A stretch of DNA of 64,000 bases, taken from an uncultured Clostridia bacterium (GTDB taxonomy: Bacteria; Bacillota; Clostridia; TANB77; CAG-508). A model generated the notes under the pieces. That model worked only from the letters and a program-made list of their open reading frames with translations. It made no database searches and had not been told where the DNA came from. Shown here piece after piece: positions 9,221 through 59,370 of the stretch. Each line of letters starts with the position of its first letter. Within the stretch, counting starts at the first letter, position 1. The stretch covers positions 21,264-85,263 of the forward strand of contig CAQDYY010000004.1 in the NCBI GenBank assembly GCA_948777935.1, given 5' to 3'. The position numbers and the translations under genes are program-made.

Positions 9221-9303
9221 TGGTGTCGATGGTGGGAATCGAACCCACATGGTTTCCCGCAGGTTTTTGAGACCTGTGCGTATACCAATTTCGCCACATC
9301 GAC
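9221..9303 (-). tRNA. tRNA-Leu (anticodon CAA), type-II tRNA with long variable arm
   Basis: reverse complement GTCGATGTGGCGAAATTGGTATACGCACAGGTCTCAAAAACCTGCGGGAAACCATGTGGGTTCGATTCCCACCATCGACACCA; acceptor stem 7/7 complementary; anticodon loop CTCAAAA; T-loop TTCGATT; 3' end ~100 nt from int. Confidence 0.85.
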
Positions 9304-13104: not shown

Positions 13105-13400
13105 ATCACAAAAAAATGATTCATACAATTTCAGAATCATTTTTTTCATTGTATACAACAAAAACCCCGCCTTAGCCGTCATTCTCAAGAGATTTTACGG
13201 ACCTGTACTCACACAGGTGGGTGCTTACCTAAATACTCCTGGGTTTCTTACATTCAGTAAGCATACACGCCATATTTAGAGGTCGGCTCCCAATTCCAAA
13301 ACTTGTAGGTTCTAAAATATCTTGTTTGTCGTACTACGCAGGGATTTTAAGACTGTAAGAATCTTTTTGTGGTTTCCACCACTTACGAATTCTTAAATTC
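13105..13400 (-). other. long 5' leader / candidate structured RNA upstream of the 764-aa gene; begins with R3-family hairpin motif
   Basis: 5' end GAATTTAAGAATTCGTAAGTGGTGGAAACCACAAA (R3 motif, stem GTGGT/ACCAC); several further hairpins (CCTGTGTGAGTACAGG; GCTTAC…GTAAGC). Confidence 0.35.
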
Positions 13401-53563: not shown

Positions 53564-54580
53564 TTATCCTAATTCTGCAAAGTATTTTATTGTTCTTACC
53601 ATTTGGCTTGTATATGAATTTTCATTATCATACCAAGAAACTACTTGAACTTGATATAATCCTTCATCTATTTTTGTTACCATTGTTTGAGTTGCATCAA
53701 ATAATGAACCATATTCCATTCCTATAACATCTGAAGATACTAAGTATTCTTCTGTGTATCCGTAAGAAGCACTTGATACAGATTTCATTTTTTGGTTAAT
53801 GCCTTCTTCTGTAATATCGTTTCCTTTTACTACAGCTACAAGTATTGTTGTTGAACCTGTTGCAACTGGTACTCTTTGTGCAGATCCTATTAATTTTCCA
53901 TTTAATTCTGGAATAACAAGTCCTATAGCTTTTGCAGCTCCTGTTGTATTTGGAACAATATTTACTGCTGCAGCTCTTGCTCTTCTTAAATCGCCTTTTC
54001 TATGTGGTCCATCTAATACCATTTGATCTCCTGTATAAGCATGAACTGTTGTCATTATTCCTGATTGGATTGGTGCAAAATCATTTAATGCTTTTGCCAT
54101 TGGTGCTAAGCAGTTTGTTGTACAAGATGCTGCTGAAATTATTTTATCTTCTTTTGTTAAAATATTTTCATTTACACCAAATACTACTGTTGGTAAGTCT
54201 TTTCCAGCTGGTGCTGAAATAACTACTTTTTTAGCTCCTGCATCAATGTGTGCCTGTGCTTTTTCTTTAGATGTATAGAAACCTGTACATTCTAGTACAA
54301 CATCTACTCCTATTTCTCCCCATGGTAAATCTTTTGCATCTTTTTCAGAATATATTTTAATTGTTTTTCCTTCTACTGTAATTGAATCTTCTCCTGCAAC
54401 TACACTATCTGCTTTTTCATATTTTCTTTGTGCTGAATCATATTTTAATAGATGTGCAAGCATATCTGGGCTTGTTAAGTCGTTTATTGCAACTATTTCA
54501 TACCCTTCTGCTCCAAACATTTGTCTAAATGCTAGACGTCCTATACGTCCAAAACCATTAATGGCTACTCTAACTGACAT
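53564..54580 (-). CDS. gap: type I glyceraldehyde-3-phosphate dehydrogenase
   Basis: '[11 protein letters not shown]' and '[10 protein letters not shown]' signatures. Confidence 0.96.
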
Positions 54581-54644
54581 TTTAATTCCTCCAATTCTGA
54601 TACTTATAATGTATCTTTTAAATTTATTCTTTCCAGAACATTAA

Positions 54645-54687
54645 CATTTTATACCAAAACAGAACACTTTGCAAGTGTTCTGTTTAA
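54645..54687. repeat. 43-bp direct repeat (copy 1) flanking the HEPN/MNT cassette; contains terminator-like palindrome
   Basis: CATTTTATACCAAAACAGAACACTTTGCAAGTGTTCTGTTTAA identical at 55536-55578. Confidence 0.85.
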
Positions 54688-54693
54688 CTTTTT

Positions 54694-55107
54694 TTATCTT
54701 TCTAAATTCAATATTTGTTTTGCAAAATCTGTTATGTCTTTTAAATGATTTTCTATGACATCTGCAAGTATTTCTTCATCAATTTGTTTATAATCATGAA
54801 TTGCAATATTTCTAAACCCTACCATTTTTTGCATATTTGTACTTATATTTTTTGAAATAAGATTACTTTCTTCTAATTTTATAAATGCTTCTTTTTTGGT
54901 TTGTGGCACTCCCAATTTTCGGTTACTAATAATATACATAGCAATATCTATTGATATTTCACATGCTCTTTGAAGGTTTAATACAATTGGATCTAATCTT
55001 CTATAATCATATAGATTTTCTATATTTCCCTCATATTCTTCCTCTATTCTCTTAATGCATTTTTGTATACTTTCGTATTTGTTAATAATAACTGCCTCAT
55101 TTTCCAT
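54694..55107 (-). CDS. hepT: HEPN-domain toxin (HepT/DUF86-like)
   Basis: 'FRNIAIHDY' R-x4-H HEPN motif. Confidence 0.8.
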   Translation of the reverse strand: MENEAVIINKYESIQKCIKRIEEEYEGNIENLYDYRRLDPIVLNLQRACEISIDIAMYIISNRKLGVPQTKKEAFIKLEESNLISKNISTNMQKMVGFRNIAIHDYKQIDEEILADVIENHLKDITDFAKQILNLER

Positions 55108-55121
55108 TTTTCATCATTCCT

Positions 55122-55505
55122 CTACTTTTTCATTTCATTAATAATAGCTTTTCTAGATTCATTTAAATCTAAATATTCTCTATATGCATCTAATTTATAT
55201 AAATCAAATTTATAACTATCTTTACAATAAATTACTTCTCCATTAATTAATATTTCATATTTAAACCCATCATTTTCTATTGTATCAAGATTTATTAAAT
55301 CAATATCTCTTTCTAATTCATCAGCTAATTTGCCACTAATCGCATATAACTCTTTTTTAGTTATTTCTTTATTTGCTTTAACTGCAATATCTATATCACT
55401 TTCTTCGTTTTGCGTTCCCCTTGCAAAACTACCAAAAATAACAATTGCTTCACACTCTAAAGCATTATTTAATAATTCTATAACTTTATCTTTTATCTCT
55501 TCCAT
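55122..55505 (-). CDS. mntA: minimal nucleotidyltransferase (MntA-like antitoxin)
   Basis: 'IVIFGSFARGTQNEESDIDIAV' GS…DxD NTase motif; 14-nt gap to HEPN gene. Confidence 0.8.
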   Translation of the reverse strand: MEEIKDKVIELLNNALECEAIVIFGSFARGTQNEESDIDIAVKANKEITKKELYAISGKLADELERDIDLINLDTIENDGFKYEILINGEVIYCKDSYKFDLYKLDAYREYLDLNESRKAIINEMKK

Positions 55506-55535
55506 ATAATAATTTCCTTACTCCTAAACTAATTT

Positions 55536-55578
55536 CATTTTATACCAAAACAGAACACTTTGCAAGTGTTCTGTTTAA
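55536..55578. repeat. 43-bp direct repeat (copy 2) flanking the HEPN/MNT cassette
   Basis: identical to 54645-54687. Confidence 0.85.
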
Positions 55579-55662
55579 AATTAAAATTTTACTACATATT
55601 GTTGACATTTTTTAGAAAACATGGTAACCTAATAGAAATATCGAAGATGGAAGGAATATATA

Positions 55663-55788
55663 ATGAAAATTAAAAACAATAATTATGTAAAATTTAATTT
55701 CTTTTTTAGCTTTAGCTTCTTTTTTAGCTACGGCTTATTTGCATATGTATTGTTTTTAATGAGTAAAAATATTATATCTATATTATAG
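55663..55788 (+). CDS. 41-aa Phe-rich hydrophobic small ORF (leader peptide or small membrane toxin-like peptide)
   Basis: GGAAGGA RBS; MKIKNNNYVKFNFFFSFSFFFSYGLFAYVLFLMSKNIISIL; TTGACA -35-like box upstream; terminator 40 nt downstream. Confidence 0.4.
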   Translation: MKIKNNNYVKFNFFFSFSFFFSYGLFAYVLFLMSKNIISIL

Positions 55789-55826
55789 TATTATTTATAG
55801 GTATTGAATAAGATTTTTAATTATCG

Positions 55827-55860
55827 AAAGGAACTCATTAAAAAATGAGTTCCTTTTTTG
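55827..55860 (+). terminator. rho-independent terminator (AAAGGAACTCATT-aaaaa-ATGAGTTCCTTT + TTTTG)
   Basis: perfect 11-bp stem and T-run, between the small ORF and the 345-aa gene. Confidence 0.65.
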
Positions 55861-55951
55861 TTTACTATAAGCTATCACTTAAATAAGTAATTAAATTGCA
55901 CATCTGAGATATAAAATATATGGCAAATTTATTGTCAGAAAGGAGTTAAGT

Positions 55952-56989
55952 ATGAAAAAGACAGAAGAGATATCACAAATGAAAAATTTGATAAGCACAT
56001 GTTTATCAAACAATTTAAATAATGAAAAAGCAGGAGACAAATCAGTCTTTTTTGGAACAGGCTTAGCATCATCACAAGCGCCAAGTTTAGGATTTGGTAT
56101 AGACATTCTAGGTACAATCTTAACGTCATTAAAAGTAAAAAGAATATTAGGTGCAAAGGAAGTATTACATCTAATATCTACAACAGGCTATAATATCAGC
56201 GAAGATACAAAAGAAAATATTGTAAAAAAACAAGAAGAGATAATACAAAAAATAGTATTAAATCTAGGAATACAAAATGAATATAGACTCATATGTTCAA
56301 GCAATTTTATAGAAACACCTAGATTCTTAGAAATAAAAAGTGAAATAGAACATACATTATCTAAGTTTAATGATGCTATTAATTTTGATCAATATGGTAG
56401 TTATACAATCTTACAAACCTCAATATGTAAGTACTTATATGAAAAAGAAAAAGTAATTTTAAAAACAGGTTGGTGTGTTAGAGACACATCAAGACCTTTA
56501 GTAGTATCAAAAGATTATATAAGAGAACTTATAGAGTGTGGACATTTAAATGAATTATATTTTGATGAAATATATAGATATGTTTATCCAGAAGATGAGT
56601 ATTCTTTTATCTATACACCACCAGCAATTGGATTAGATGGTAGATGTTCTCCTCCATATACTGTAACAGAAAATGATAATAGACCTTTAATAGACGAAAA
56701 TATAGATTTGTATGTAAATACATATATAGGTAATATGCAAGAAACAAGAGATTCAAGGAAAAAATTCAAAAAATCGATTGAAAACTGGAGAAAAACAATT
56801 ATTGAACCATATGAAGATTTATTTGGGAAAATAATTGTTTCAGAAGATATTTCTAATCCCCAATTTGAAATTTTAAAAAAACTATCAGCTATTCAAAAAG
56901 AAATTTTGCAAGATATAGATATTGAGCAAAATATAAAAATTAAGAATATTACACGTAATACATCAAATTTTGAAATAGGAGGAATTTAA
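55952..56989 (+). CDS. hypothetical enzyme-like protein (345 aa), translationally coupled to an aminotransferase
   Basis: AAAGGAG RBS; no family recognised; stop 1 nt before the next ATG. Confidence 0.6.
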   Translation: MKKTEEISQMKNLISTCLSNNLNNEKAGDKSVFFGTGLASSQAPSLGFGIDILGTILTSLKVKRILGAKEVLHLISTTGYNISEDTKENIVKKQEEIIQKIVLNLGIQNEYRLICSSNFIETPRFLEIKSEIEHTLSKFNDAINFDQYGSYTILQTSICKYLYEKEKVILKTGWCVRDTSRPLVVSKDYIRELIECGHLNELYFDEIYRYVYPEDEYSFIYTPPAIGLDGRCSPPYTVTENDNRPLIDENIDLYVNTYIGNMQETRDSRKKFKKSIENWRKTIIEPYEDLFGKIIVSEDISNPQFEILKKLSAIQKEILQDIDIEQNIKIKNITRNTSNFEIGGI

Positions 56990-56990
56990 A

Positions 56991-58073
56991 ATGAATTTAA
57001 AAATTTCAGAATATATAGAAAATACAAGCACTAAATATTATGCAGATGCTAAAAAATTAAAGTACGATATAAAAATCGATTGTTCTGATGGAGAAAACCC
57101 ATATGGATGTTCAAAAAAAGTAATGCAATCATTAGCTGAAATTAAAGAAAGTGATATTACAAATTATTCATATGACAATAGTTTAAAACAAGAAATAGCA
57201 AAATATTGGAATATACAAGATAGTAATATTGTGTTATGTTCAGGTTCAGTAGAAGGGTTATATTATATTAATCAATTATTTAAAATACCAAATGCTACAT
57301 TACTTACATTCGCACCACATTTTCCTAATTTCAGCAATCATGCTAAAATGATTGGATATAAATATAAAGAAGTTTTGCTTGATAAAAAAAATAATTATAA
57401 ATATGATATTAATAAATTAATAAAAAGTATAAATAGCTCTGTAAACTTAATTTATATAGACACACCTAATAACCCTACTGGTCAAGTATTAGAAAAATCT
57501 TATGCAATTAAATTAATCGAATATGCTCAGCAACTAGGAATTGGAATTATAATTGATGAAGCATATGGAGATTATTTATCAAAAAACGAATCATGTATAG
57601 ATTTAGTTAATAGCTACACTAATTTAATGGTTATTAGAACTTTTTCAAAAGGATTTGGGTTAGCTGGAATACGTGCAGGATATATAATATCAAATGAAAA
57701 AATATGTAATTATATTGAAAAAATGTTACATCCATATAATATCTCACAATTATCAAGAAAGATGGCTATAAAGGCATTAAAAGATACAAAATTTCTTAAT
57801 GATTGTATAAATAAAACAAAAAGAAATAAAAAGAAATTGCTGGAATCTTTGCCAATTGGATTACAAATGGCGTTTACACACGAAAGTACATCAATTTGTA
57901 TGTTATATTGCGATAAAGATATAGATTTGTGTAAAAAGTTCGCTCAAAAAGGAGTAAAAGTTTATTCGGGTACATGTTTTGATGGAATTGATAAAAATTG
58001 CATTAGATTAAATTTGCCAACAGATAAACAGATGGATTCATTAATAAGTATAATTAGAACAATAAAAATATAA
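56991..58073 (+). CDS. class I/II PLP-dependent aminotransferase (HisC/aromatic-aminotransferase-like)
   Basis: PLP-lysine motif 'TFSKGFGLAGIRAGY'; 'DTPNNPTG' aspartate/aminotransferase motif. Confidence 0.8.
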   Translation: MNLKISEYIENTSTKYYADAKKLKYDIKIDCSDGENPYGCSKKVMQSLAEIKESDITNYSYDNSLKQEIAKYWNIQDSNIVLCSGSVEGLYYINQLFKIPNATLLTFAPHFPNFSNHAKMIGYKYKEVLLDKKNNYKYDINKLIKSINSSVNLIYIDTPNNPTGQVLEKSYAIKLIEYAQQLGIGIIIDEAYGDYLSKNESCIDLVNSYTNLMVIRTFSKGFGLAGIRAGYIISNEKICNYIEKMLHPYNISQLSRKMAIKALKDTKFLNDCINKTKRNKKKLLESLPIGLQMAFTHESTSICMLYCDKDIDLCKKFAQKGVKVYSGTCFDGIDKNCIRLNLPTDKQMDSLISIIRTIKI

Positions 58074-58218
58074 TTCCGGTAGTTTCTTAAAAATATAAAA
58101 ACACCTCTTAAGTAGATTTTGGTTATTTACCTAGTCTACTTAAGAGGTATTATATCAAAGTCTCACCTTTAACTTCTTTATTTTATTATATCAATTCTTA
58201 ATGTGTTTTACATAAATT

Positions 58219-59370
58219 CTATCCAAATATTCCTCTTTTCTTTACAGGTGGTTGTTCATTCATTGTTTTTGCAAGTTCTACTAATAAATCTCTTTGCTCT
58301 TTTGATAAACGCTTTGGTGTTTGTACTTCTACTGTAAATATTAAATCACCTTCATAATTTCTATTTACTGCTTTAAATCCTTTTCCTTTTACTCTAAACC
58401 TTGTTCCAGTTTGTGTTCCTTCTGGTATTTTAAACTTTTCTTTTGAACCATCTACTAATGGAATTTCAAGTTCTGCTCCTAATGTTGCTTGTGTAAATGT
58501 TATTGGAACTGTGCAAAGTACGTTATAGTCTTGACGTGTATATATATTGTGACGTTTAATATGTACTGTTATGTATAAATCTCCTTTTGGTCCACCTTTT
58601 ACACCTGGTGCTCCTTCTCCTCTTAATACAACAGTTTGATTTTCGTCTATTCCTGCTGGAATTTTTACTTTTATTCGTGCTTGTTTCCTAATTGTTCCTT
58701 TTCCACGACAAGCTTCACATGGTTCATGTACTACTTTTCCTTCTCCATGACAAGTTGGACATGTTCTTGTAGTTTGCATTTGTCCTAATATAGTTGTTTG
58801 AACTTGTTTAATTTGCCCTGTTCCATGACACATTGTACATGTATCTACTTTGCTTCCCGGTTTCGCACCACTTCCATTACATATATCACATGTATCATCA
58901 CGACTTATGCTAATTTCTTTTTCTACACCTAAGAAAGACTCTTCAAATGTAATTTCCATATTGTATCGTAAATCTGCACCTTTTTGTGGACCACTCGTTG
59001 TTCTACTAGAACCTCTTCCTCCAAAGCCTCCTCCAAAGAAAGATGAAAAGATATCACCTAAATCTCCCATATCAAAGCCATCAAAACCAGAAGTAGAGTA
59101 TGAATAATATCCTCCACCTGGTCCTCCTCCACCAAATCCCTGTGGTCCATCTGGTCCAAATTGGTCATACATTTTTCTTTTTTGAGAATCTGATAAAGTT
59201 TCATATGCTTCATTTACTTCTTTAAATTTTGCTTCTGCTTCTTTTTTGTTATCTGGGTTAGCATCTGGGTGATATTTTTTTGCAAGTTTACGATATGCTC
59301 TTTTTAATTCATCATCACTTGCATTTTTATCTACACCTAATACCTCATAATAATCTCTTTTTGTAGCCAT
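58219..59370 (-). CDS. dnaJ: molecular chaperone DnaJ
   Basis: J-domain 'YHPD', G/F-rich region, four CxxCxGxG zinc-finger repeats. Confidence 0.96.

Follow-up and report, generated by a model that had tools for sequence, protein, structure and literature searches.

Classical leader-peptide attenuation is a textbook mechanism of proteobacteria. Here we describe a locus of an uncultured Clostridia bacterium (contig CAQDYY010000004.1) at which a small, phenylalanine-rich open reading frame (ORF) and an intrinsic terminator precede two genes, one for a 345-aa protein and one for an aminotransferase, which we call AT2. We conclude that the region 55602-55862 ahead of this gene pair is very probably a transcription attenuator of the ribosome-mediated leader-peptide type, with charged tRNA-Phe as its signal. 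Coordinates refer to the window, by which we mean the whole stretch of DNA that was analysed (64 kb, 28.2% GC). The closest described systems are the pheL-pheA and pheM-pheST leaders of gamma-proteobacteria (Rfam Phe_leader; PMC3082878). Like these, the window leader has a short ORF in which Phe codons form a run, an intrinsic terminator and mutually exclusive hairpins, its relatives have pheA and pheST as targets, and it would likewise sense charged tRNA-Phe via ribosome stalling. Unlike them, it has no sequence or structure match in Rfam, its peptide is longer (30-43 aa over the family), its host is a low-GC member of the Bacillota, and one and the same leader family serves at least four types of operon.

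In Firmicutes, aminoacyl-tRNA synthetase (aaRS) and amino-acid genes are normally under the control of T-boxes, and a handful of leader-peptide cases is known (PMC1262725, PMC2965389). Naville and Gautheret reported that in bacilli a His leader precedes paralogues of hisS as well as hisZ, with none found earlier outside the Proteobacteria and Actinobacteria (PMC2965389), and the ilv-leu operon of S. aureus carries a Leu-rich attenuator (PMC5794164). For the aaRS genes of Firmicutes, Seliverstov et al. (2005) stated that they are T-box-controlled and that none is controlled by classical attenuation (PMC1262725), whereas pheST, an aaRS operon, is among the targets of the leader family described here. 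The Firmicutes attenuators resemble the present one in that classical attenuation is used where T-boxes are usual for such genes, but the amino acid or the genes differ. A leu/phe leader motif of Lactococcus was reportedly described by Weinberg et al. in 2010. The added interest of the leader described here lies in its phylum, in its tandem and replacement relations with Phe T-boxes, and in the placement of an orphan pair of a TyrRS-like protein and a pyridoxal phosphate (PLP) enzyme in a Phe regulon.

The leader ORF and its relatives

The leader ORF encodes exactly MKIKNNNYVKFNFFFSFSFFFSYGLFAYVLFLMSKNIISIL and contains 10 Phe codons (8 TTT and 2 TTC). The preliminary description of this DNA had already pointed to a small ORF with its own ribosome-binding site (RBS), to a strong intrinsic terminator about 40 nt past it and to two translationally coupled genes further downstream, and on these points it was correct: the distance from the stop codon to the terminator stem is 37 nt, and a single nucleotide separates the AT2 start from the stop of the first gene, with GGAGG inside that gene's end. 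Its count of 13 Phe codons was wrong.

Eight of the Phe codons fall within a stretch of 11. Such a cluster is reached by 2 of the 1564 six-frame stop-to-stop segments of the window, and 7 Phe in 11 codons are reached by 12 more. The other segment with 8 Phe, at about 62.12 kb, is found upstream of dnaK (minus strand); since grpE occupies the matching position in the near-identical locus L001, we take the segment to be antisense to grpE. In DNA of this base composition, Phe density alone is extreme, not unique, and it is weak evidence. What raises the leader above chance is its conservation in related loci.

Related loci (designated by L numbers) were obtained by fetching the contigs of relatives of the 345-aa protein, by a protein search with the 41-aa peptide and by one metagenome DNA-pattern scan. 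The upstream region is homologous in most of the fetched relative loci. As a protein query, the leader peptide had a single match, P0162, which led to locus L024. One of the three loci from the DNA-pattern scan, L027, was rejected as a chance match inside a coding region. The alignment comprises ten leaders, namely that of the window and those of L009, L018, L024, L008, L013, L026, L028, L007 and L016.

The RBS, the start codon, the Phe block, AUGAGU, GAACUCAUU and the terminator are kept in all ten, and GGAG or GGAGG stands 6-10 nt ahead of an ATG or TTG start in every homologous leader. The aligned block reads F-N-F-F-F-[S/N]-F-S-F-F-F-S-Y-G-x-F-x-Y, followed by the UUUUUAAUGAGU motif and the invariant GAACUCAUU. 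Codons 14, 15 and 26 encode Phe throughout, codons 13, 17, 20 and 21 do so in eight or nine leaders, and the Phe cluster as such is conserved in nine of the ten. Length changes within the Phe block preserve the reading frame (L008 has gained 6 nt, L007 and L016 have each lost 3 nt), and synonymous changes are seen near the cluster (AGC/AGT, TAC/TAT, GGC/GGT). Beyond about codon 29, the frames and stops diverge (L013, L026, L028, L007, L016) and the nucleotides stay conserved; peptide length ranges over the 30-43 aa given above. In these same five leaders, the stop codon falls within or just past the UUUUUAAUGAGU arm, and a terminating ribosome would therefore cover the arm.

Ahead of the ORF, a putative promoter consists of the -35 hexamer TTGACA (55602-55607), a spacer of 17 nt and an extended -10 element, TGG-TAACCT, with its hexamer at 55625-55630. 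A consensus promoter scan did not report it, the -10 matching in just 3 of 6 positions. The layout TTGACA-17-TGnTAAYCT/TATAAT recurs at equal distance in L009, L018, L008, L024, L013 and L028.

Comparison with Rfam found no leader family, whether at E<=10 in the window region 54500-58600, at the gathering threshold in the whole window or at E<=1 in L024, L026 and L028; at those thresholds, the leu/phe-leader and all other Rfam leader models were without a match in the window region and in these three loci. Neither was a T-box (RF00230) found in 54500-58600 at E<=10 or in the whole window at the gathering threshold. The only gathering-level matches in the 64 kb are a 6S RNA (85 bits) and one tRNA, with no T-box or riboswitch among them.

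Alternative pairings and the proposed mechanism

The terminator stem (55826-55857) has 14 bp and a loop of 4 nt, is followed by T6-G-T3 and has a folding energy of -17.1 kcal/mol. No other terminator-like site occurs in 55000-58500, where shuffled sequences have 0.6 on average. The preliminary description had named, as a check on attenuation, an alternative antiterminator/terminator pairing that overlaps the ORF, and such a pairing was found: UUUUUAAUGAGU, which lies inside the ORF, is perfectly complementary to ACUCAUUAAAAA, which comprises the 5' arm and loop of the terminator. The 12 Watson-Crick pairs give a duplex of -10.7 kcal/mol, and a complement of 12 nt was matched in 2 of 2000 shuffles of the ORF. 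The pairing is kept in all ten leaders, with 94.8% of cells paired as compared to 37-59% when the partner is slid along; L026 shows one compensatory change (U-A to C-G), and GAACTCATT in the antiterminator 3' arm is invariant in all ten.

A further helix, P1, would compete with the antiterminator for the same arm. It pairs ORF nt 7-29 with nt 76-98 and encloses an inner hairpin made from Ser, Tyr and Gly codons, and the whole folds at -25.8 kcal/mol. Over the ten leaders, 89.8% of its cells are paired, as compared to 34-45% when slid, and six of its pairs have changed on both sides, with a covariation score above that of 500 out of 500 shuffles. One of these changes, U-A to C-G in L018 and L024, hits a nucleotide that is also within the antiterminator arm, where it is tolerated as G-U. 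A compensatory change at a nucleotide common to both helices is the pattern to be expected if P1 and the antiterminator exclude each other.

Full-length minimum-free-energy folding with a stalled ribosome was judged uninformative, because the decision is kinetic, and was replaced by folding of nascent RNA. Here, the RNA ended before the 3' arm of the terminator, and only the RNA downstream of a ribosome on the Phe codons of the central cluster (through codon 21) was folded; seven leaders were treated in this way. With the ribosome stalled, all seven had the 5' arm of the terminator paired with the ORF region, and in six of them the partner was the antiterminator arm. In L007, the antiterminator arm is used only for stalls from Phe18 on, and with earlier stalls an upstream segment of the ORF pairs. 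Without a ribosome, the U-run of the antiterminator arm is captured by P1 in the leaders of the window, L018 and L008, and less clearly so in those of L009, L013, L007 and L016.

The best-supported reading of these elements is a classical 1:2 / 2:3 / 3:4 attenuator. In such a mechanism, the conserved promoter would start a transcript of about 225 nt that carries the 41-codon ORF. With Phe-tRNA-Phe plentiful, the ribosome would pass through the Phe block, and the UUUUUAAUGAGU arm would be either covered by the ribosome or recaptured in P1, such that the terminator could form and transcription would end. With Phe-tRNA-Phe scarce, the ribosome would stall at the Phe codons (8 of codons 11-21) and hence sit in the apical part of P1, whose 13-bp, A/U-rich basal helix could then not close. 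The released arm would pair with ACUCAUUAAAAA, the 5' arm of the terminator, once this is transcribed, the terminator would be pre-empted, and RNA polymerase would read into the two downstream genes. The coordinates of these elements and of the other features are given in Table 1.

Table 1. Positions of the leader elements, the gene pair and further features in the window
Feature	Position	Strand	Basis or remark
Putative promoter of the leader transcript	55602..55630	+	Read from the sequence; assignment rests on conservation in homologous loci
Leader Shine-Dalgarno sequence GGAAGGA	55649..55655	+	7 nt before ATG
Leader peptide ORF, 41 codons, pheL-like	55663..55788	+	Open, with start codon and RBS, in 10 diverged loci
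P1 (anti-antiterminator) 5' arm (region 1)	55669..55691	+	Pairs with 55738-55760
Phe-codon cluster, putatively regulatory	55693..55725	+	Codons 11-21, F-N-F-F-F-S-F-S-F-F-F, 8 of 11 Phe
P1 3' arm (region 2, first part)	55738..55760	+	8-nt overlap with the antiterminator arm
Antiterminator 5' arm UUUUUAAUGAGU (region 2, second part)	55753..55764	+	ORF nt 91-102, within the leader ORF
Intrinsic terminator (attenuator, regions 3:4) and T-tract	55826..55862	+	Scan and folding; equivalent terminator in 10 of 10 leaders
Antiterminator 3' arm ACUCAUUAAAAA (region 3)	55833..55844	+	Terminator 5' arm and loop
TyrRS-fold pseudo-synthetase gene (345 aa)	55952..56989	+	AlphaFold2 (AF2) model, Foldseek
AT2, HisC-family PLP enzyme (360 aa)	56991..58073	+	PF00155 at 5.7e-52, residues 27-354
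Inverted repeat CCTCTTAAGTAGA ... TCTACTTAAGAGG	58094..58147	.	Between convergent AT2 and dnaJ, read from the sequence
6S RNA and tRNA	13160-13347 and 9224-9303	-	Rfam

Several points weigh against the attenuator as just described. The full-length minimum-free-energy fold contains the terminator in every case, even with the stalled ribosome as a hard constraint, which means that the switch must be kinetic, as in other attenuators. In the no-ribosome nascent folds of L009, L013, L007 and L016, the antiterminator is still seen, and P1 is therefore not a strong sequestor everywhere. The core pairs of the antiterminator are invariant and thus give no covariation information, and the slide control favours a structure that was derived from one of the aligned sequences. 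As to the architecture, the regulatory codons of trpL and pheL lie inside region 1 (strand 1), whereas the Phe codons here occupy the apical portion of hairpin 1:2, between its two strands (regions 1 and 2), and it is on steric grounds only that a ribosome stalled there is argued to exclude P1. A second departure from trpL and pheL is that the window-type leaders have their stop codon 22 nt beyond the antiterminator arm, which a terminating ribosome would hence leave uncovered, and the OFF state would depend on P1 re-forming behind the ribosome. Finally, L016 retains 4 Phe codons only.

This last leader, which has the RNA elements despite its few Phe codons, also speaks for another explanation, in which the conserved hairpins act as an RNA switch that needs no translation and has a protein, tRNA or metabolite as its ligand, and the ORF is incidental to a U-rich RNA. 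The conservation of P1 and its inner hairpin is accompanied by covariation, much of what is conserved in the peptide falls on paired RNA, and TTT codons easily arise at 28% GC. However, RBS and start codon stand at a fixed distance in ten of ten leaders, the Phe-block indels are multiples of three, and the U-runs lie in loops, in frame as UUU/UUC. Furthermore, the leader itself has no T-box or other Rfam match, and a Phe-codon sensor directly explains a Phe-specific regulon, such that we consider an RNA switch of this kind unlikely. The preliminary description had offered as its alternative a type-I-toxin-like membrane peptide. A functional hydrophobic peptide of this or another sort, with the terminator ending its own unit, would fit the hydrophobicity of the product, the good RBS and the terminator behind the ORF, and one gene caller annotated a homologue as a protein (P0162). 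It does not fit the fact that the C-terminal third is not kept as a peptide: frame and stop are conserved to about codon 29 only, and beyond this it is the RNA that is conserved. The varying length likewise argues against it, as does the fact that the conserved part is the Phe run itself. In addition, the element is always found on the same strand directly upstream of Phe-related operons, the ORF pairs with the terminator, and no conserved antisense promoter or RNA was seen. A membrane peptide is thus not supported, and we find it hardly credible.

It might also be argued that there is no regulation at all, i.e., that the terminator stops upstream read-through and that the gene pair has its own promoter in the 90-nt spacer (55863-55951). 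In the window, there is indeed room for a promoter in the roughly 90 nt between terminator and gene, including an A/T-rich stretch with TATAAAAT, and L012 expresses the pair from a promoter without any leader. But a promoter scan of 55863-55951 was empty, L007, L008 and L016 have a spacer of only about 25-30 nt, too short to hold a promoter, and a conserved promoter lies ahead of the leader. Moreover, the antiterminator logic would be purposeless, and we regard this explanation as very unlikely. The attenuator is therefore the reading that we retain. The earlier proposal of a pheL-style attenuation leader for an aromatic-amino-acid function is supported in this respect, both by the alternative pairing and by the hisC-pheA, pheST and Phe T-box contexts of the leader in relatives.

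One leader shows an additional peculiarity. In L013 (3840-3945), the terminator is tandemly duplicated, ATAGAACTCATTAAAATTAGTTCTAT being followed by ATAGAACTAATTAAATTAGTTCTAT with a T-run after each, and the second copy lacks the CAT that pairs with the antiterminator arm.

Operons behind the leader and its relation to T-boxes

The leader is found ahead of several kinds of genes. In L024, it precedes a HisC equivalog (343 bits, cutoff 276.55), which is followed by a prephenate dehydratase with an ACT domain (pheA), and in L026 it precedes pheS-pheT. In L028, the gene behind it encodes a membrane protein at the end of the contig, and in L008 it is followed by the pseudo-synthetase/aminotransferase pair, with pheS-pheT 18 nt downstream. 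From promoter to terminator, the leaders of L018 and L024 are 82% identical and those of L026 and L028 88%, which suggests that single lineages carry several leader copies before different Phe operons. Judged by these contexts, a small Phe regulon in uncultured, low-GC Bacillota of gut or rumen type is defined by this one uncurated leader family, which is new and has a mechanism of a known kind. The regulon comprises pheA-hisC, pheST, the gene for a membrane protein and the orphan pair.

Two of the genes concerned are interrupted. The prephenate dehydratase of L024 is split in two ORFs (1599-2406), and pheS of L026 is frameshifted (351-1390). Both are probably due to assembly or sequencing errors, though they may be pseudogenes.

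A Phe T-box (RF00230) has the same signal, tRNA-Phe charging, and the same output, a terminator/antiterminator switch, and in L007, L016 and L019 it controls the same gene pair. It differs from the leader in that it senses by tRNA binding, whereas the leader would sense via translation. In L007 and L016, the two devices are arranged in tandem: a T-box (118 and 108 bits, respectively) with its own terminator precedes the leader, and its specifier position, UUC followed by A, is Phe-specific. Here, two sensors of one signal would act in series, T-box then leader, each with its own terminator. A comparable arrangement is said to exist in the B. subtilis rtpA (anti-TRAP) operon, where, according to Chen and Yanofsky, a T-box is followed by the Trp-codon leader peptide rtpLP. 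The T-box part of this operon is mentioned in PMC10327191. The likeness is that a T-box stands in series with a leader peptide whose codons are for the same amino acid. In contrast to rtpLP, which acts on translation of the next gene, the leader of L007 and L016 has a terminator/antiterminator, such that both stages would be transcriptional, and the amino acid is Phe.

In L019 (1-300), the Phe T-box is kept and the leader ORF is a truncated remnant without Phe block or terminator. In L012 (3930-4156), the pair has neither T-box nor leader, and only a promoter and a 20-nt poly-A run lie upstream of it. As far as can be read from these sequences, the regulatory region upstream of the pair is labile across lineages. 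The leader takes the place of the T-box in some lineages, is stacked with it in others and is lost in still others. This variation amounts to a natural series on the exchange or stacking of two sensors for the same signal.

The TyrRS-like protein, the aminotransferase and their surroundings

The placement in this regulon offers a first functional handle on the family of the 345-aa protein, for which there is no Pfam entry. It had been described as a protein of unknown family. This holds at the level of sequence, in that searches of Pfam (including PF00579), NCBIfam and PDB sequences were without a match; its fold allows a more precise statement, since the protein can be described as a TyrRS-fold pseudo-synthetase. 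The AF2 model has a predicted local distance difference test (pLDDT) score of 85.6 and a predicted template-modelling (pTM) score of 0.86. The 50 best Foldseek matches listed from the PDB are all TyrRS (probability 1.0, E ~1e-8, TM 0.5-0.6), aligned over the whole length. As in class Ic TyrRS, the model comprises a Rossmann catalytic fold plus a C-terminal helical domain.

Among 5.8 billion proteins, 13 relatives of the 345-aa protein were found, and a profile search of 1.84 billion representatives gave 216 remote relatives (clusters at 50% identity). Two of the remote relatives are fused to a complete TyrRS, and a third, P0016, retains the C-terminal S4 domain of TyrRS. The natural fusions, P0047 (796 aa) and P0052 (756 aa), join a complete TyrRS that has HIGH and KMSKS to a pseudo-synthetase domain of this family, which may come first or second, and are reminiscent of the catalytically dead TyrRS copies in the pseudo-dimers of trypanosomatids (PMC9437257). 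P0016 is followed by an adjoining gene of the YbaK-type tRNA_edit family. Remote relatives at 34-40% identity (L022 7935-9775, L023 673-2405, L029 493-2390) occur without aminotransferase or leader. Those in two metagenome-assembled genomes of termite-gut Bacillota adjoin VanW-like genes, and the one in L022 is also near a two-component system.

The 345-aa protein shares with TyrRS (class Ic, PF00579) the fold over the whole length, including the C-terminal helical domain, and the amino-acid-binding motif Y-x3-Q. It differs from TyrRS by the lack of a PF00579 match and of HIGH and KMSKS, by hydrophobic residues, throughout its clade, at both positions that would contact the hydroxyl group of tyrosine, and by its coupling to a PLP enzyme and to Phe control. 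The place of HIGH is taken by S45-L-G-F48 and that of the KMSKS loop by S233-P-P-Y-T (233-237), both of which are invariant in the clade; these correspondences are by position and secondary structure and not by computed superposition. As an alternative KMSKS motif, KFKKS (270-274) was rejected, as it lies inside helix 266-291 of the model.

Cyclodipeptide synthases (CDPSs; AlbC, PMC3105412) are likewise derived from aaRSs and have lost the ATP-dependent activation while keeping the amino-acid pocket. They have no C-terminal domain, and their catalytic Ser lies two residues past a conserved Gly (PMC3105412). The 345-aa protein, in contrast, has a C-terminal helical domain, no CDPS Pfam match and the motif G35-T36-G37, with an invariant Gly, G37, at the position of the CDPS Ser. 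S45 was considered as a CDPS-like catalytic Ser and rejected, since the CDPS Ser corresponds to G37.

A closer look at the amino-acid pocket is offered by MjTyrRS, in which tyrosine is contacted by Y32, Y151, Q155, D158 and Q173 (PMC3105412). The family profile aligns with MjTyrRS weakly and colinearly (HMMER, E 0.06-0.09), with Y-x3-Q-x2-D falling onto Y151, Q155 and D158. In the broad family, the Y32 equivalent is mostly Tyr and the D158 equivalent often Asp. In the aminotransferase-linked, Phe-regulated clade, the Y32 equivalent is Phe and the D158 equivalent is Ile or Leu, which removes both ligands of the hydroxyl group, and the alpha-amino ligands Y151 and Q155 are kept. We infer from this that the pocket may have switched from a Tyr type to a Phe type in the clade under Phe control, though it counts against this reading of the proteins that the comparison rests on the weak profile alignment and on position, and not on structural superposition. 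An hhalign comparison of the family with two TyrRS domains gave a wrong, low-probability alignment and was not used. Residues 324-345 (nt 56921-56986) form a disordered tail (pLDDT <50), which ends in a conserved G-G-[R/K/I] in most members of the clade.

AT2 directly follows the pseudo-synthetase in every locus long enough to show it. Its translation contains the Schiff-base Lys motif FSKGFGLAGIRAGY as well as NPTG and DEAY. Against TIGR01141 (hisC, cutoff 276.55), AT2 scores 223.3 bits and its orthologues in L008 and L007 score 234.1 and 220.5 bits, all below the cutoff, whereas the aminotransferase beside pheA in L024 is above it with 343 bits. The previous assignment to a HisC/aromatic-type aminotransferase was therefore roughly right, and AT2 is a diverged paralogue of the HisC family that stays below the HisC equivalog cutoff.

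Our confidence in any specific biochemical role for the pair is low. A precedent for an aaRS paralogue that serves an amino-acid biosynthetic enzyme is HisZ, a HisRS-like (class II) regulatory subunit of HisG. By analogy, the pair may, as a tentative proposal, be a Phe-supply module in which AT2 would make Phe from phenylpyruvate and the pseudo-synthetase would be a Phe-binding partner, regulatory or substrate-handling, as is HisZ for HisG. Alternatively, the pseudo-synthetase may have an enzymatic role, e.g., on prephenate or arogenate, or a role linked to tRNA.

Rather doubtful, though conceivable by the same kind of analogy, is that the pair constitutes a new aaRS-derived step in Phe or Phe-tRNA supply that is switched on by tRNA-Phe starvation. 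This step might take one of two forms. The pseudo-synthetase may be the TyrRS-family counterpart of HisZ/HisG or AsnA, i.e., a paralogue with a Phe pocket that regulates or feeds a dedicated aminotransferase. In the most radical form, there may be a tRNA-linked route like that of SepRS/SepCysS, with the PLP enzyme converting a synthetase-bound precursor. An aaRS-derived step may be compatible with the retention of the amino-acid pocket and of the C-terminal, tRNA-side domain, and with relatives that have an S4 domain, a TyrRS fusion or a YbaK-type deacylase as neighbour. It may also be compatible with the fact that the pair is always co-translated and stands under three independent kinds of Phe control. 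A search of the literature for a TyrRS-like/aminotransferase pair found nothing relevant, and the table of a review on aaRS duplications gives no function for a TyrRS paralogue, its text covering the cyclodipeptide synthases with TyrRS/TrpRS fold (PMC9437257).

With respect to the genomic neighbourhood, the operon probably ends at the inverted repeat between AT2 and the convergent dnaJ (58094-58147), which the terminator scan missed because its loop is longer than 8 nt. Directly upstream of the leader region lies a toxin-antitoxin pair on the minus strand (54694-55505), which consists of a HepT-like HEPN RNase (137 aa, PF01934) and an MNT nucleotidyltransferase (127 aa, PF18765). In several short-read assemblies of the same species, there is a break at about 55549, some 404 nt ahead of the 345-aa gene, and the 84%-identical relative L009/L010 has a different sequence at the HEPN/MNT position, so that the HEPN/MNT module looks strain-variable. 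The suggestion that the cassette between this module and dnaJ is an accessory insertion can hence be upheld in part. The module of leader and gene pair does occur in different neighbourhoods across lineages, but its place beside dnaJ is conserved down to relatives of 84% identity, and it is HEPN/MNT that is the strain-variable element. Between the divergent MNT gene and the leader promoter, there is a perfect 10-bp inverted repeat, CAGAACACTT-TGC-AAGTGTTCTG (55551-55573). It is conserved in L009-L011, which are without the toxin-antitoxin module, and could be a bidirectional terminator or insulator, or else an operator.

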